Source: a virus (taxonomy: Duplodnaviria > Heunggongvirae > Uroviricota > Caudoviricetes). Taken from it: a stretch of DNA of 37,403 bases. Shown one piece after another: positions 6,661 to 36,395 of the stretch. Positions within the stretch are counted from its first letter, which is position 1. Every line of letters starts with the position of its first letter. The position numbers and the translations under genes are program-made. The stretch is taken from IMG/VR virus record IMGVR_UViG_2529293140_000005, positions 1-37,403 of that record; one strand, 5' to 3'. The notes under the pieces are model-generated. The model was not told the origin of the DNA and did no database searches. It saw only the letters and a program-made list of their open reading frames with translations.

Positions 6661-7139
6661 GAGAACTAAACCTCACCAAAGAACAGCATGAGTGGCTGAA
6701 TGGCTGGCTTGAACTGTGGGGCGCATGGGTTTATTCAGGTCGTCTGGAAAAGCGCATGAGCAGCGTAATAGCGAAGTTCATGGAGAGCGTAGAGCCGGGA
6801 AGAGTTATGACAAGGCCAATGTGTAATGATGATGATGGAATGTTGATTTCTCAGGTCGTCGATTCCGTCATGTGCATTGACAAGAAAGCCTTTGGCATCC
6901 TCCTCAGCTACTACGCTCATGGCTCTTCCAAGCACGCCATTGCATCTTACTATCATTGCGTCGCAAGACCTCGCAAGATGTTATGCCGTGGCGGTGGGCG
7001 CATTCAAAAACCATCGCTCGCAACCTGTCGACGGGAAGTTGACGAAATCCTTAATGCCTCGTTGTTTATGATTTACCCGGTTCTGGATAGTGCGTTTAAA
7101 AATCGGAAACGTGTAGAGAAAATTAAACATGTAGCATAG
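6651..7139 (+). CDS. Putative late-gene antiterminator (Q-position protein)
   Basis: 162 aa immediately upstream of a promoter-like sequence, a short terminated leader and the lysis genes. Cys/His-rich C-terminal half. It is not lambda Q; the assignment is positional. Confidence 0.45.
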
Positions 7140-7145
7140 AACGTG

Positions 7146-7226
7146 TTGACATCATTGAGCAAATGAGCAACACTATTCGCATAAGCTGCCGTTAGTGACT
7201 CTTAAGTTGCAACGGTGGCTTTTTTT
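7146..7226 (+). promoter_or_regulatory. Candidate late promoter (PR'-like; consensus -35 TTGACA at 7146..7151) with a short leader ending at a terminator
   Basis: Perfect TTGACA 7 bp after the Q-position stop. The -10 is not clearly identifiable. The layout resembles lambdoid PR'/qut/tR'. Confidence 0.35.
7185..7226 (+). terminator. tR'-like rho-independent terminator
   Basis: GCTGCCGTT ... AACGGTGGC stem (two G-U pairs) followed by TTTTTTT at 7220..7226. Confidence 0.45.
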
Positions 7227-7676
7227 GTTTGCACAACAGGTAAGAGCATTGAACCAGCAGACCTCGCGGAATTGGTGAAAGGTGCCGCGCAGTGCTCTTA
7301 TCGTTGTGGTGAAGCTCAATGGCGAGCTAGCAGATAGGCGACAGTGAAAATACTAGTCATGTAGCTGACCGCCGCGCGTACTGCAATCGGCAGCGCACCG
7401 ATGGAAGCCGGTTCGATTCCGGCCGCCACAACCCAAACTGAGCCGTAGCCACTGGCTATCCTGAATTCATCAGTGATAGTTACGCTGCGGACTTCTACAC
7501 ATGACCTTCGTGAAAGCGGGTGGCAGGAGGTCGCGCTAACAACATCCTGCCGTTTTGCCCGTGCATATCGATCACGAACAAATCTGATTACTAAACACAG
7601 TAGCCTGGATTTGTTCTATCAGTAATCGACCTTATTCCTAATTAAATAGAGCAAATCCCCTTATTGGGGCTAAGAC

Positions 7677-8000
7677 ATGAAGATGCCAGAAAAACATGAC
7701 CTGTTAGCCGCCATTCTCGCGGCAAAGGAACAAGGCATCGGGGCAATCCTTGCGTTTGCAATGGCGTACCTTCGCGGCAGATATAATGGCGGTGCGTTTA
7801 CAAAAACAGTAATCGACGCAACGATGTGCGCCATTATCGCCTGGTTCATTCGTGACCTTCTCGACTTCGCCGGACTAAGTAGCAATCTCGCTTATATAAC
7901 GAGCGTGTTCATCGGCTACATCGGTACTGACTCGATTGGTTCGCTTATCAAACGCTTCGCTGCTAAAAAAGCCGGAATAGAAGATGGTGGAAATCAATAA
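7677..8000 (+). CDS. S: Holin S (class I), with Met1-Lys2-Met3 dual-start motif
   Basis: [68 protein letters not shown]... matches lambda S as recalled. Confidence 0.9.
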
Positions 8001-8460
8001 TCAACGTAAGGCGTTCCTCGATATGCTGGCGTGGTCAGAGGGAACTGATAACGGACGGCAGAAAACCAGAAATCATGGTTATGACGTCATTGTAGGAGGA
8101 GAGCTATTCACTGATTACTCCGATCACCCTCGCAAGTTTGTCACGCTAAACCCCAAACTCAAATCAACAGCCGCCGGACGCTACCAGCTTCTTTCCCGTT
8201 GGTGGGATGCCTATCGTAAGCAGCTTGGCCTGAAAGACTTCTCTCCGAAAAGCCAGGACGCTGTGGCACTGCAGCAGATTAAAGAGCGTGGCGCTTTGCC
8301 GATGATTGATCGCGGTGATATCCGTCAGGCAATCGACCGTTGCAGCAATATCTGGGCTTCACTGCCGGGGGCTGGTTATGGTCAGTTCGAGCATAAGGCT
8401 GACAGCCTGATTGCAAAATTCAAAGAAGCAGGCGGAACGGTCAGAGAGATTGAGGTATGA
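7984..8460 (+). CDS. R: Endolysin R (lytic transglycosylase)
   Basis: [51 protein letters not shown]... matches lambda R as recalled. Confidence 0.9.
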
Positions 8461-8924
8461 GCAGAGTAACCGCGATTATCTCCGCTCTGGTTATCTGCAT
8501 CATCGTCTGCCTGTCATTGGCTGTTAATCATTACCGTGATAACGCCGTCGCCTACAAAGAGCAGCGCGATAAAAAAGTCAGTGAGCTGAAGCAGGCGACC
8601 GCCACCATTACTGACATGCAGCAGCGCCAGCGTGATGCTGATGCGCTCGATGCTAAATACACGAAGGAGTTAGCGGATGCGAAAGCTGAAAATGATGCTC
8701 TGCAGCGCAAGCTTGATAATGGTGGTCGGGTGCTCGTCAAAGGCAAGTGTCCAGTGTCAGCCGCAACCCAAACCACCGGCGCCGCCAGCATGGGCAATGA
8801 TGCCACCGTCGAACTCTCTGCAGTTGCTGGACGAAACGTTCTCGGTATCCGATCCGGAATCCTCAGCGACCAAACAGCCCTGAGGGCGCTGCAGGAATAC
8901 ATCACCACGCAGTGCCTGAAATAA
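8457..8924 (+). CDS. Rz: Rz i-spanin
   Basis: N-terminal TM segment and first ~80 aa lambda Rz-like; the C-terminal half is divergent. Confidence 0.85.
8677..8883 (+). CDS. Rz1: Rz1 o-spanin lipoprotein, embedded in Rz in the +1 frame
   Basis: [19 protein letters not shown] with lipobox VVGC followed by a Pro-rich segment; fully nested in Rz. Confidence 0.8.
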
Positions 8925-8925
8925 C

Positions 8926-8950
8926 AGCCTCGCAATAGCGGGGCTTTTTA
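8926..8950 (+). terminator. Rho-independent terminator after the lysis cassette
   Basis: AGCCTCGC / GCGGGGCT stem (one G-U pair), 4-nt loop, TTTTT. Confidence 0.5.
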
Positions 8951-9075
8951 ATGCGTATCGTACACGCAAACCATCGAGAGTCTTTCAGTCGTGAGCCTGA
9001 GGAACGCCGTTAAAGGTGGCGACCTCTCTCGGGCGGCGTTCCTGTACGACAGGCTCACACCTAAAGGAAAACAGC

Positions 9076-9672
9076 ATGAAAGTTATCAAGTATTGGAAAG
9101 TTCAGCTTCTGCAGTTGTCTCAGCCCTCCAGCAATCTTTCCGGCATTATCAATGCCCGCACTCTGGTCGAAAGCCTGTTGTTTGAGGGGTACTCGAAAGA
9201 TAAACCGAAAATTAACCTCGATTCCGGAGTAAATATTGAGTTATTTACAGCACCCGATTCGCTGGAAACCCGTATCTTTCGTAACCACCTCGTTGACAGT
9301 GTGCGTTGCTTCCCGGTGTGTGAAGATGATGGCGACAAAAGTGAGGGGGTAGACATTGCCATCCACCTTGAGCCTCAGATTTCCAAATGCCGAGCCGTCA
9401 TTGGTGGCGCGGGCGCAGCAAAGGCGCCAGAAAAAATCCATGACCATGCCTGTATTAACTGCTTCCTTGGTCGCGGTCCGTGCCTTGGTGACTGCCACGT
9501 TGCCGACGTTAATAAGGCTCGCAGCTCCTCCTTCGAAGACGTGGTGAAGCCCGTAATCAAATGGCTTAACGAAAACGCCAACCCTCATACATCAGTGAAC
9601 ATCGACGCAACCAGTGCTCAGCTGCTTACTGGTGAAATCGGCATTCACACGGAAGAGTTCATTAAGGACTGA
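9076..9672 (+). CDS. Hypothetical Cys-rich protein (putative zinc-binding), unknown function
   Basis: 198 aa from the ATG at 9076 (RBS AAAGGAAA). Cys/His cluster HDHACINCFLGRGPCLGDCH. Sits at the lysis/packaging junction. Confidence 0.5.
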   Translation: MKVIKYWKVQLLQLSQPSSNLSGIINARTLVESLLFEGYSKDKPKINLDSGVNIELFTAPDSLETRIFRNHLVDSVRCFPVCEDDGDKSEGVDIAIHLEPQISKCRAVIGGAGAAKAPEKIHDHACINCFLGRGPCLGDCHVADVNKARSSSFEDVVKPVIKWLNENANPHTSVNIDATSAQLLTGEIGIHTEEFIKD

Positions 9673-9732
9673 TCGGGCATTACAGAGCCACTTCCAGAGG
9701 TGGCTCGATAATGTCACAACGAGGTAAGGACT

Positions 9733-10473
9733 ATGGCAAAACCGGACTGGGGAGCACTGCAACACCAGTTCCTCGCCGAGCATGCCAAAACAGGAATATC
9801 CCCGAAAGACTGGTGCGCAGCGCAGGGACTGAATTACTCATCTGCGAAACGCTATATCAAAGTAACGACTTACGGTGCGAATTCGCAAAAAAAAAGTGCG
9901 AACAAATCTGCGAATTCGCAGAAGGAGAAAGGCGGGGCCAATAAAAACGGGAAGGTGAAAAAAAACCAGCCCGACACAGGCGCCCGCTCAAAATCTCCAG
10001 AAACGAAACCGATACGCGGATCGCGCACCGCACCGCCGACGAACGCCTTCCAGCCTGGCAACCAGAACGCATTAAAGCATGGTGGCTATGGCCGCCGGAT
10101 GCTGCTCTCTGACGCCATCACCGAAGATGCCCAGATGCTCACGCTCGACGATGAGCTTTTCTGGCTGCGAGCGGCGAGCCTGACAGCGGCAGAGAATATC
10201 GGGCGCTGGCAGACAGAGCTGGAGACAGCCGCCAGCGAGCAGGCCAAAGATCTACACGACCTCATCTCTCAGGCGCAGAAAGCCATGCATCGCAACACTG
10301 CGCGCATTGAGTCGCTGGAGTACACCAAGGCGGCGATTATCAAGCAGCGCGTTGATGCCGCTTACCGCGAAGCCGCGACCGAAAAGGTTGAGCTCGAAAT
10401 TGATGTACTGAAAGACGGCGACAAGGATAACGCGATCGTCGTGCATAACTCGCTGCCAATACCGGGAAGATAA
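9733..10473 (+). CDS. Terminase small subunit
   Basis: Directly upstream of the large subunit; N-terminal HTH-like segment; basic low-complexity linker; internal palindromes. Confidence 0.65.
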   Translation: MAKPDWGALQHQFLAEHAKTGISPKDWCAAQGLNYSSAKRYIKVTTYGANSQKKSANKSANSQKEKGGANKNGKVKKNQPDTGARSKSPETKPIRGSRTAPPTNAFQPGNQNALKHGGYGRRMLLSDAITEDAQMLTLDDELFWLRAASLTAAENIGRWQTELETAASEQAKDLHDLISQAQKAMHRNTARIESLEYTKAAIIKQRVDAAYREAATEKVELEIDVLKDGDKDNAIVVHNSLPIPGR

Positions 10474-11819: not shown

Positions 11820-13235
11820 ATGAACGAAGATGATATCGCAATCGGCAGTTGCTCGCCGGAGCTGATCACGCTCCTGGACAGCGATGACATTCAGCCGGGT
11901 ATGTCGGCTGGCTATCAGACCTGCAAAACGATTTACCTCTTCCACCCGTTGGGAGGGAAAATGGTAGATCGCCCGATCAAGATGGCGATGAACGAGTCGC
12001 GCACGGTTCACATTTCGCAGGCGTATGGCATTGAGCAGCGTCTCCGCGATGCATTTGAGCGGGAGTGGAAAGCACTGGGCGCCGATAAGCACATCGCTAA
12101 TGCGGCGCGCATCTCTCGCATTTACGGTGTTTCGGCGATCGCAATGCTGGTTGATAACCAGGAGCCGTCCTCTGCGGTGGACTACCGCACGCTGTATAAG
12201 CACAACGTGACATTCAACATTCTCGACCCGCTGAACACTGCCGGAAGCATCGTCCTGAACCAGGATCCGAACGCGCAGGACTTTCAGAAGGTCGACGGGA
12301 TCAGAGTGGCGGGCAAGCCGTATCACAAATCCCGCTGTGTTGTGCAACAGAACGAGGACCCGATTTATCTGGCCTATAACTCTGCGGCCTTTGGCTTTAC
12401 CGGTCGCAGCGTTTACCAGCGCGCTCTGTTCCCGCTGAAATCCTTCATCCAGACCATGCGCACCGATGACATGGTTTCCGTGAAGGGTGGCTTGCTGGTA
12501 ACGAAGATTCAGGGACCGAGCTCAGTCGTCAACAACATGATGCAAAAGCTCAGCGGCATCAAACGAATGATGCTGAAGCGAGGGAAGACAGGCGAGGTCC
12601 TGCAGATCGGCGCAAATGACAGCATCGAATCCATCGACCTGAGCAACCTGGAAAAGCCGCTCGACTCCTCCCGGAATCACATTCTGGAGAATATCGCTGC
12701 GGCAGCTGACATGCCGGCTATCATTCTGAACTCGGAAACATTCGCCCAGGGCTTCGGCGAGGGGACGGAAGACGCTCGATCTGTTGCAGTCTACATCGAC
12801 AACATCCGCGAGTGGCTTGAGCCGCTGTATGACTATTTCATCCGTATTTGCCAGTATCGCGCCTGGAGCATTGAGTTTTTCAATTCTCTGCGTGCTGACT
12901 TTCCGGAGCTGAAAAACACCTACAGCCTGTATTTCTCCTCATGGATTAACAACTTCGAATATCGCTGGCCGTCATCCCTGAAAGAGCCGGAAAGCGAAAA
13001 AGTGAAGGTCGACGAAATCCGCTTTAAGGCCATCGTCAGCATGCTGGAAGTCCTTCTCCCGCAGGTCAACACGGATGATGAGAACCGCGCGCTTCTTATC
13101 GAGTGGGCGCAGACCAACGCGAACGCTAACGAAAGCCTGTTCCCGCAGCGACTTGATCTCGATATCGACTCGTTAAAGGCTAACCGGCCTGAACAGCCAC
13201 GGGATGAAGAGCCCGGCGGCGGGATGATGCTATGA
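11820..13235 (+). CDS. Portal protein
   Basis: 471 aa immediately after the terminase; size and position. Confidence 0.7.
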   Translation: MNEDDIAIGSCSPELITLLDSDDIQPGMSAGYQTCKTIYLFHPLGGKMVDRPIKMAMNESRTVHISQAYGIEQRLRDAFEREWKALGADKHIANAARISRIYGVSAIAMLVDNQEPSSAVDYRTLYKHNVTFNILDPLNTAGSIVLNQDPNAQDFQKVDGIRVAGKPYHKSRCVVQQNEDPIYLAYNSAAFGFTGRSVYQRALFPLKSFIQTMRTDDMVSVKGGLLVTKIQGPSSVVNNMMQKLSGIKRMMLKRGKTGEVLQIGANDSIESIDLSNLEKPLDSSRNHILENIAAAADMPAIILNSETFAQGFGEGTEDARSVAVYIDNIREWLEPLYDYFIRICQYRAWSIEFFNSLRADFPELKNTYSLYFSSWINNFEYRWPSSLKEPESEKVKVDEIRFKAIVSMLEVLLPQVNTDDENRALLIEWAQTNANANESLFPQRLDLDIDSLKANRPEQPRDEEPGGGMML

Positions 13236-34998: not shown

Positions 34999-36195
34999 TT
35001 ACTCGCCTGCGCGACCATCAATGTAATCAGCCCACCACTGCATCATTTCTCTGCGCTTATCGAGATACTGAGCATGGTTGTAAATCCCGCGCACAGAACC
35101 GCCGTTGGCATGTGCCAGTTGCACTTCAATAGCATCAGCAGGCCATTCGTTCTCGTTCATAATCGTGCTGAATTCATGCCTGAATCCGTGACCGCTTTCC
35201 AGACCCTCATAGCCGATTTGTTTGATCACAAGTAGCACCGCGTTCTCGCAGATTGGCTTCTTCTTATCGTTGCGCCCGGCAAAAACAAACTCTGATACTG
35301 GTTTGGTGATTGAGCTTAGCGTAGTGAGAAGTTCAACCACCTGGTCTGACATCGGTACTACATGGATCCTTCGTCCTTTCATCACACTGGCGTCGATGGT
35401 GATAATCCTGTTTTCAAAATCGACGTTCTTCCATAGCATGGAACGAAGCTCTTTCGTTCTTAGGGCAGTGTAGCGTAAAATCTTGGTGGCAATGAGCGAT
35501 ACGATACTTCCTGAAAATGTTGCCAGTGCTTTGTTGAATGCCGGGATCTGGTCTGCAGGAAGAAACGGGAAGTTCTTCTTGCGGTATCCCTTCATGGCGT
35601 CAGCAAGGTCAGGTGCCGGGTTATATTTAGCCCTACCGGTGACAATAGCGTAACGGAAAACCTCGCCGCATCTTCTGCGTGCTTTGTTGGCTCGCTCCAT
35701 TGCACCGCGATCTTCAAATCTGCGGATTACTTCCAGCAGTTGCATCGGCTCAATATCCTGAATCTCAAGACCGCCGATGATGGGTAAAATGTCGTCATCA
35801 AACATTTTTGCAAGTTCAGTTGCATAGCCTACAGACCAGACTTGCTTCTTGTGCTCGTACCATTCCTTGTAAATCGCACTAAAGGAATTGTTGTTAGACG
35901 AAGCCTTTTTCGCCTTTACCGGATCGATACCAACCGAGATGTCTTTCCTCGCAGTCCATGCTTTATCCCTTGCCTCCTGCAAAGTCATAAGCGGATATTT
36001 TCCGACAGTCAGGATTTTCTCCTTACCGTCAATCTTGTAGCGAAGCTGCCATACCTTTTTCCCGGATACAGGGACATAAAGGTACAGGCCATTACCATCG
36101 AGAAGGCGATATGGTTTTTCTTTCGGCTTTGCTGCTTCAATCTGCTTAACGGTGAGCATGGGTAAAAATCCGGTGGGTAAAATTATTTTATCCAC
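34999..36195 (-). CDS. intS: Tyrosine site-specific integrase (P4-type)
   Basis: 398 aa; C-terminal catalytic motifs (HGFRHEF..., final Y region); adjacent to a tRNA 3' end. Symbol assigned from the argW/yfdC context as recalled for E. coli. Confidence 0.85.
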   Translation of the reverse strand: MDKIILPTGFLPMLTVKQIEAAKPKEKPYRLLDGNGLYLYVPVSGKKVWQLRYKIDGKEKILTVGKYPLMTLQEARDKAWTARKDISVGIDPVKAKKASSNNNSFSAIYKEWYEHKKQVWSVGYATELAKMFDDDILPIIGGLEIQDIEPMQLLEVIRRFEDRGAMERANKARRRCGEVFRYAIVTGRAKYNPAPDLADAMKGYRKKNFPFLPADQIPAFNKALATFSGSIVSLIATKILRYTALRTKELRSMLWKNVDFENRIITIDASVMKGRRIHVVPMSDQVVELLTTLSSITKPVSEFVFAGRNDKKKPICENAVLLVIKQIGYEGLESGHGFRHEFSTIMNENEWPADAIEVQLAHANGGSVRGIYNHAQYLDKRREMMQWWADYIDGRAGE

Positions 36196-36320: not shown

Positions 36321-36395
36321 TGGTGTCCCCTGCAGGAATCGAACCTGCAATTAGCCCTTAGGAGGGGCTCGTTATATCCATTTAACTAAGAGGAC
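36321..36395 (-). tRNA. argW: tRNA-Arg (anticodon CCU)
   Basis: Reverse complement reads GTCCTCTTAGTTAAATGGATATAACGAGCCCCTCCTAAGGGCTAATTGCAGGTTCGATTCCTGCAGGGGACACCA: cloverleaf with GGTTCGATTCC T-loop, CCT anticodon, 3' CCA. Confidence 0.85.

Follow-up and report, generated by a model that had tools for sequence, protein, structure and literature searches.

Bor in phage lambda and Rha in P22/phi80-like phages are named accessory genes at the junction between the lysis and packaging genes. Classic morons carry their own promoter and terminator, and terminase-associated HNH proteins exist in HK97-like phages. The DNA analysed here, the 37,403 nucleotides of IMG/VR record IMGVR_UViG_2529293140_000005 (hereafter the window), is a lambdoid E. 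coli prophage with a 99.4% identical copy in the E. coli chromosome NZ_CP185938, and it carries at this junction an open reading frame (ORF) for a protein of 198 amino acids (aa). Genes 65–68 of phage Sf6 share its position, after Rz/Rz1 and before the small terminase gene (terS), and are likewise patchily distributed among related phages. Rha has been found in this very slot, and the window protein has no sequence relation to Rha or to Sf6 gp66; one of its relatives (P0145) carries a module of the Sf6 gene 66/N4 gp49 family (PF13876). By sequence, the window protein belongs to the families phrog_16206 and phrog_4621, differing by about 60 extra residues, and neither family has a described function.

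A further parallel is provided by Pseudomonas phage JBD26, in which the defence protein Tab is encoded among the terminase genes on the opposite strand with its own promoter, while the counter-defence protein gp30 (anti-Tab) is encoded on the same strand, overlaps terS, and is made with the late genes (PMC10884400). As in JBD26, a small accessory protein without known homologues lies beside terminase genes in the window. The analogy is one of layout only; JBD26 differs in host and phage type, and its slot lies between terS and the large terminase gene (terL).

An exchangeable slot between Rz and terS

The Rz–terS junction is an exchangeable cargo slot with a conserved structured element at either edge, namely a terminator plus leader hairpin to the left and a junction hairpin of 40 nt to the right. 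The ORF that occupies the slot in the window is a genuine gene under purifying selection. The elements of the junction are as follows.

8926..8950, + strand: intrinsic terminator after Rz; stem AGCCTCGC/GCGGGGCT (8 pairs, 6 of them G-C), loop AATA, T5
8981..9068, + strand: structured 5′ leader with a long hairpin (core 8991–9058); folding free energy (dG) −49.7 kcal/mol, z-score (z) −3.8
9076..9672, + strand: accessory ORF (phrog_16206 core), 198 aa, TGA stop codon at 9670–9672
9676..9715, + strand: junction hairpin GGCAUUA / CA / GAGCCACUU - CCAG - AGGUGGCUC / GA / UAAUGUC, the right edge of the slot
9721..10473, + strand: Shine–Dalgarno sequence (GAGG, AAGGA) and terS; ATG at 9733, 246 aa, phrog_370 (E = 1.4e-84)

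A 198-aa ORF between the Rz terminator and terS had been proposed from the sequence by eye in the initial annotation, and it is present at 9076–9672 on the + strand. The mechanical ORF call extends from 9016 to 9672, with a GTG start and 218 aa. The true start is the ATG at 9076, which is preceded by an AAAGGA Shine–Dalgarno sequence at 9063–9068; an identical 597-nt coding sequence (CDS) is called by the Prokaryotic Genome Annotation Pipeline (PGAP) in the 99.4% identical E. coli prophage, and the N-terminus of all relatives reads MK(V/L/I)IKYW. The GTG start at 9016 is ruled out because the stretch upstream of the ATG is a common leader that also precedes other cargo. At E ≤ 0.001, 278 relatives were retrieved from E. 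coli, Klebsiella, Citrobacter, and Raoultella genomes, all labelled as hypothetical proteins. Against diverged copies, the ratio of nonsynonymous to synonymous substitution rates (dN/dS) is 0.11–0.16 for the N-terminal part at a synonymous divergence (dS) of 0.65–1.4 and 0.04–0.21 for the C-terminal part; both end domains together give 0.04–0.22 at dS 0.1–1.4, which excludes a spurious ORF. The protein is soluble, and its 198-aa sequence contains no signal peptide or membrane segment.

In NZ_CP185938, the annotated gene order runs from NinG through a phosphatase, antiterminator Q, a lambda-family holin, a GH24 endolysin, and the Rz lysis protein to two hypothetical proteins, the large terminase, and the portal; phrog_370, a small-terminase family, is matched by the second of the two hypothetical proteins. 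The Rz gene of the window ends at 8924, the terminator scan places the stem of its terminator at 8926–8945, followed by T5, and the first gene past the slot is the terS CDS at 9733–10473. The gene is uncommon in E. coli, with 67 of 5,426 complete genomes matching some part of the region and 10 of 5,426 matching most of it.

Comparison with related phages reveals that the flanks are kept while the content of the slot changes. In the near-identity search of phages, only the flanks 8918–9081 and 9675–9751 match, in 18 Klebsiella phages, and the body of the ORF is unmatched. Between the same flanks lie a gene for a 142-aa membrane protein in GZ7, Rha in an E. coli prophage, and a GrlR-like gene with its own terminator in ST405-OXA48phi1.2. 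The slot is empty in Mulock, RAH1, and 2 LV-2017, where the Rz1 stop codon abuts the right flank. Klebsiella P0274 has a 61-aa stand-alone form of the C-terminal domain in the same slot, ahead of the same 246-aa terS. A census of 94 IMG/VR contigs carrying the junction hairpin, in which the gene just upstream was read, showed Rz/Rz1 itself (an empty slot) in about 35, the family of this ORF in 10, a GrlR-like gene in 9, and Rha in 4; small membrane proteins and many singletons make up the remainder. The accessory hot spot that the initial annotation had assigned to this junction is thus borne out across 94 viral contigs with varied contents. As close phages that share this terS leave the slot empty or fill it with something else, the ORF is dispensable.

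Cargo may be swapped by homologous recombination in the conserved flanks. An integron-like attC cassette was considered and rejected: no integrase adjoins the slot, and the right-hand element is conserved in sequence, not just in shape.

Two conserved domains and an optional Cys/His knuckle

The full-length protein matches phrog_16206 (E = 9e-59, 198.1 bits; residues 1–198 against positions 3–137 of the 137-position profile), and residues 146–197 match phrog_4621 (E = 8e-07). The earlier statement that no family is recognizable by eye therefore needs qualification: nothing was found in Pfam, NCBIfam, or PDB, while two PHROG families match, both of unknown function. In the alignment of relatives, the first ~85 and last ~50 residues are conserved, and the part between them is assembled from modules that a relative either has or lacks as a whole block, which explains the mismatch between 198 aa and a 137-position profile. 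The window protein is the phrog_16206 core with about 60 inserted residues, comprising a linker and a Cys/His knuckle. Minimal proteins of 130–140 aa with only the N- and C-terminal domains, recovered from Salmonella, Serratia, and Citrobacter by an N-domain profile search, represent the phrog_16206 architecture. The parts of the window protein are as follows.

9076..9330, + strand: N-terminal beta domain, aa 1–85 (MKxIKYWxVxLF ... TPVYE); five strands, always at the extreme N-terminus
9331..9432, + strand: linker or optional module A, aa 86–119 (GDKSEGVDIAIHLEPQISKCRAVIGGAGAAKAP); predicted to be disordered, predicted local distance difference test (pLDDT) score 31–53, present or absent among relatives
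9433..9507, + strand: optional Cys4(+His2) knuckle, aa 120–144 (K-I-H-D-H-x-C-x-N-C-F-x3-G-x-C-x-G-x-C-(H/N)-V-x-D), between the N- and C-terminal domains
9523..9669, + strand: C-terminal domain, aa 150–198 (sFExxvKPlIKWLNENxNPHxxviIDxtsAELxxGExxxxTxEFxKD); long helix and beta-hairpin, almost always ending in -KD

The N-terminal domain, in which Trp7, Leu11, Gly38, Tyr39, and Pro80 are invariant, recombines with other middle and C-terminal modules. The C-terminal domain is widespread, with 533 clusters recovered by an exhaustive HMMER search of 1.8 billion cluster representatives, and its profile also finds 204 mostly stand-alone proteins. Stand-alone C-domain proteins of 50–82 aa are common, and the domain also forms the C-terminus of many longer mosaic proteins; the WLNENxNPH ... 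AEL ... EFxKD signature that characterizes the phrog_4621 and stand-alone proteins is found at the C-terminus of the window protein. At least four further small modules are shuffled among proteins of the C-domain family, for example that of the N4 gp49/Sf6 gp66 family PF13876. One relative of 169 aa (P0148) joins the N-terminal domain to a C-terminal stretch that resembles a bacterial immunoglobulin-like domain by eye, which Pfam did not confirm. Synonymous divergence is discordant between the N- and C-terminal domains when the ORF is compared with loci L107 (1.17 versus 0.15), L096 (0.94 versus 0.10), and L141, and this discordance, together with the block-wise presence of modules, indicates recombination within the gene.

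No characterized homologue was identified, as the initial annotation had anticipated. Searches of Pfam, NCBIfam, PADLOC, and PDB sequences with the 198-aa protein gave no match, and PDB profile searches with the C-domain alignment and the full alignment gave noise only. HNH or other nuclease Pfam families were matched neither by the protein, even at E up to 10, nor by any of 150 relatives, among which Pfam returned scattered single matches only. The AlphaFold2 (AF2) model built from 34 close relatives reached a pLDDT of 41.8, and the one built from 150 diverse relatives a mean pLDDT of 78.3 with two confident domains: residues 1–85 are predicted to form a beta domain of five strands (most block means above 90) and residues 142–198 a long helix followed by a beta-hairpin (block means 88–96), while residues 86–150, including the knuckle, are poorly defined. 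A Foldseek comparison of the model with PDB gave no match and no nuclease fold; the structural matches in BFVD were only small uncharacterized phage proteins, with template modelling (TM) scores of 0.74–0.82 for the C-terminal domain. A literature search found no paper on this protein family. Homology to a terminase-associated HNH or structural protein, which the initial annotation had named as the outcome that would speak against it, did not emerge.

The Cys/His cluster is composed exactly as first described, with His122, His124, Cys126, Cys129, Cys136, Cys140, and His141 spaced as H122-x-H124-x-C126-x2-C129-x6-C136-x3-C140. Its pattern of CxxC ... CxxxC with four conserved cysteines is that of a Cys4 zinc knuckle, and from its sequence the module reads as such a knuckle, possibly with the involvement of histidines. 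The knuckle is found in 85 of 268 family proteins. Among 51 distinct versions, Cys126 and Cys136 are retained in all 51, Cys129 in 50, Cys140 in 49, and both His122 and His124 in 48, whereas His141 is found in only 34. The module is absent from several close relatives (for example P0042, P0045, P0083, P0085, and P0096) and from the minimal two-domain forms, and therefore is not the shared functional center of the family. The view of the cluster as the core of the protein thus gives way to that of an insert of ~25 aa between two conserved domains, absent from many close relatives and with a variable His141.

The slot edges and neighboring elements

On the left side, the leader folds into a long hairpin that none of 200 shuffled sequences matches in stability, and its minimum free energy fold pairs UCUUU with the AAAGG of the Shine–Dalgarno sequence. 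Terminator and leader are kept together in Klebsiella phages with other cargo, and in GZ7 the terminator, leader, and ATG AAA are conserved up to the point at which the cargo diverges. The leader core was found in 23 fetched loci and stands directly ahead of a cargo gene in 20 of them; the cargo that follows is of four unrelated types, namely members of this ORF's family (151–243 aa), a membrane protein (142 aa), an AlpA-like helix-turn-helix protein (70 aa), and Rha (172 aa). A leader variant linked to Rha (L121) carries two double compensatory changes in the inner stem.

On the right side, the perfect 7-bp hairpin without a T-run that had been described at 9685–9706 is exact (GAGCCAC at 9685–9691, 8 nt, GTGGCTC at 9700–9706), yet it is the core of a larger interrupted stem of 16 bp at 9676–9715. 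The predicted RNA fold of 9670–9740 contains this 16-bp stem with a 2×2 internal loop and a CCAG tetraloop (dG −23.1 kcal/mol, z −3.5). Seven phages that are different to its left and right share the 40-nt block unchanged, it sits after unrelated cargo or directly after the Rz1 stop codon, and the CGAGG...ATG stretch before terS is conserved along with it. A perfect 7-bp stem alone is not beyond chance, as the window contains 40 such stems with loops of 3–10 nt versus 18 ± 4 in dinucleotide shuffles; the support for the element lies in its conservation and in compensatory changes.

The hairpin is nearly unchanged across more than 100 IMG/VR contigs irrespective of the upstream gene; 45 variants of it were collected from them by two pattern scans with only one stem fixed in each, and the sample is biased by these patterns. 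In the variant AAGCTCATC-TGCG-GGTGGGCTT, four double changes leave every one of the nine inner pairs intact. Most single changes among the variants still allow a G-U pair on the + strand. Pairing extends to 97.3% of cells among 23 distinct hairpin sequences, with both partners altered in four pairs, a number that none of 500 shuffles reaches. Because the sampling is pattern-biased and the compensatory changes come from one sequence, this covariation is suggestive evidence for an RNA structure.

The junction hairpin belongs to the slot and not to the ORF. Downstream of it lie the present terS family in about 68 loci and a different region, with a short ORF, a metallopeptidase, and a DUF2280-type small terminase, in about 49 loci; preceding two different regions, the hairpin therefore marks the end of the lysis/cargo block and not one terminase. 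A pac or cos site tied to terS was rejected on account of the other region found downstream in those ~49 loci and of the G-U pairs, which suit RNA over DNA. A terminator of this ORF was likewise rejected, since the hairpin has no U-run and is present without the ORF; the terminator scan did not report the 9685–9706 hairpin, whose tail is GATAATGTCACAACG. An Rfam search found no family match for the leader or the junction hairpin and only noise on the terminator stretch (E ≥ 1, 13–16 bits versus gathering thresholds of 47–70). The hairpin may act as an RNA element of the late transcript that contributes to its processing or stability, or to the translation start of the gene that follows. RNase III processing hairpins of polycistronic phage transcripts, such as T7 R1.1, are intergenic stems of ~16–18 bp with a small internal loop and without a U-tract that lie between functional gene blocks, and the junction hairpin, with its intergenic position, ~16-bp interrupted stem, and lack of a U-tract, resembles them.

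Several further features of the region were recorded. An alternative-frame ORF of 77 aa (9711–9944) has as its start an ATG located in the hairpin's 3′ arm (GATAATGTC) and runs into the beginning of terS, and RAH1-like loci contain a 40-aa ORF from the same ATG; the 9711–9944 frame is probably not a gene. Within terS, two copies of the perfect palindrome TGCGAATTCGCA lie at 9876–9887 and 9909–9920, spaced 33 nt apart; both copies are present in 33 fetched loci, their offsets from the junction hairpin are constant at +163 and +196 nt in 29 listed loci (+195 in one locus), and they are a candidate pac or TerS recognition site. The gene that follows the large terminase (471 aa; 11820–13235, equal to L001 6921–8336) is named "anti-CBASS protein Acb1 family protein" in a near-identical prophage; its equivalent in Klebsiella relatives matches Pfam Phage_portal_3, and the gene is probably the portal under a misleading name. 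Relatives carry two tRNA genes (Asn and either Thr or Arg) between Q and the holin (L001 2380–2535, L002 723–879), and Rfam detects no tRNA in the corresponding stretch 7139–7677 of the window. The sole Rfam tRNA of the window lies at 36324–36395 (−), adjoining an ORF at 34999–36195 (−) that we take to be the integrase, and the tRNA end is probably the attachment end of the prophage.

Expression and candidate functions

A consensus scan of the + strand from 8400 to 10000, which could miss a weak or non-sigma-70 promoter, yielded no sigma-70-like site. Upstream of the ORF lie the Q antiterminator, holin, endolysin, and Rz genes, and relatives are packed tightly into the late operon: P0145 starts 4 nt and Yersinia P0284 10 nt past the spanin gene, and Salmonella P0135 shares 11 nt with the spanin gene and stops 60 nt short of terS. 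Because no promoter was found and relatives are so packed, late expression from a Q-dependent promoter through the Rz terminator is the simplest reading.

The position of the family was surveyed in 61 IMG/VR loci found with a C-domain pattern, mostly related lambdoid prophages in which the lysis genes always precede the packaging genes. In about 48 of these loci, a large terminase and portal pair starts 0.8–2.6 kb downstream on the same strand; with four further loci of the Salmonella layout, about 52 of the 61 have a large terminase within ~2.6 kb. The neighboring terminases include GpA, Terminase_3, and Terminase_6 as well as types without a Pfam match, and the holins and endolysins beside the relatives differ as well. 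On the opposite strand, C-domain relatives are found between terL and the portal gene in Salmonella and between the portal gene and a head-morphogenesis gene in Vibrio phages; some small C-domain forms lie near helicase, primase, or methylase genes. Stand-alone C-domain genes of Salmonella prophages and Vibrio crassostreae phages (L173 3501–3749, L180 4389–4544, L181 3887–4144) were observed on the opposite strand within small-gene islands inside the terL–portal–head cluster.

The reading favored here, with a confidence somewhat short of even, is that the ORF encodes a genuine, soluble, Q-dependent accessory protein of the late operon, carried as exchangeable cargo and acting by binding in lytic-cycle conflict. 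Polymerase from a Q-dependent late promoter would read through the Rz terminator into the ORF, and the product would be made late, together with the lysis and packaging proteins. The protein may act by binding and not by catalysis, with the constant C-terminal domain as a docking or oligomerizing part and the exchangeable N-terminal and middle modules, including the putative zinc knuckle, tuning specificity. Its likeliest role would be counter-defence or competition with other phages during the lytic cycle.

Several points weigh against this proposal. Binding and conflict are suggested by modularity, patchy distribution, and analogy, and the knuckle stretch has a pLDDT of 57–63, so that its zinc site is not confidently modelled. 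The recurrent closeness to packaging genes could mean a packaging role. Beyond the promoters that the scan could have missed, the terminator upstream of the ORF also fits a separate transcription unit, and the varied layouts of relatives, on the opposite strand or near replication genes, imply that the family is not bound to one expression mode.

A bolder version of the conflict proposal, possible although doubtful, regards the C-terminal domain as the universal docking module of a large and undescribed modular family of counter-defence or competition proteins. The domain would grip one conserved late-stage target, such as a host sensor of terminase, portal, or capsid, or the packaging machinery of a competitor; N-terminal and middle modules would be shuffled in an arms race, and the flanking hairpins would be processing or insulation signals that admit any cargo.

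The junction was initially described as a moron or accessory hot spot, and the ORF, as a lysogenic-conversion or defence moron, would be transcribed from a leader promoter of its own and shield the lysogen, for instance through superinfection exclusion. Presence/absence polymorphism among close relatives at one position of a known accessory hot spot bears out part of that description, the terminator directly upstream is compatible with it, and some C-domain relatives, like true morons and Tab, are encoded within packaging clusters on the opposite strand. Unlike classic morons, however, the ORF has no promoter upstream and no terminator downstream of its own that could be found, and it is not a moron in the narrow meaning of the term; its leader is a stable hairpin common to Rha and other cargo, its relatives overlap or abut the spanin gene and leave no space for a promoter, and the protein lacks a signal peptide or membrane segment. 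This role is accordingly considered unlikely.

Also improbable is that the protein assists late functions of the phage itself, as a packaging helper of the terminase or portal or as a determinant of lysis timing. The family does adjoin packaging genes in several unrelated layouts (Rz–terS, terL–portal, and portal–head), and the proximity of a large terminase in about 52 of 61 loci is in keeping with such a function. However, GZ7 and Mulock have the same terS/terL module and lack the ORF, some relatives lie near replication genes, and at least four unrelated terminase types occur next to the family, so that one conserved C-terminal domain is unlikely to fit all of them. Because related lambdoid prophages make up most of the survey, the recurrent proximity to packaging genes may simply show which sites tolerate cargo.

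A regulator that binds the flanking RNA hairpins or DNA through its zinc knuckle, and thereby controls terS or itself, is very unlikely: although the CxxC-x6-CxxxC knuckle has conserved histidines and two conserved hairpins flank the gene, both hairpins also occur without the ORF, the knuckle is absent from many family members, and no nucleic-acid-binding family or fold was matched. A zinc-binding nuclease was the first candidate named in the initial annotation; a zinc-dependent, HNH-like nuclease tied to the terminase is scarcely credible. The ORF, like the HK97-like HNH proteins, is His/Cys-rich and lies beside terS, but neither an HNH profile, a nuclease fold, nor a family-wide catalytic motif was found, its motif is shorter (only ~25 aa) and differs from HNH in order (HxH, CxNC, CxxxC), and many relatives dispense with the knuckle altogether.

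The type of slot and the PHROG families were already known. New, at the descriptive level, are the two-domain core with its inserted knuckle, the breadth and modularity of the C-terminal domain, its persistent position, and the pair of conserved structured elements at the slot edges. Many defence and counter-defence functions have come from accessory genes of temperate phages, and the family described here, which comprises hundreds of sequence clusters and has neither a known fold nor a known function, recurs at the boundary between lysis and packaging. If none of the proposed roles holds, the ORF would be one more dispensable prophage gene of unknown function. If the family is a modular binder in late-stage conflicts, it would constitute a new protein class together with a natural domain-swap set, and the two RNA hairpins, which delimit the slot precisely, would make the cassette easy to find in other prophages.

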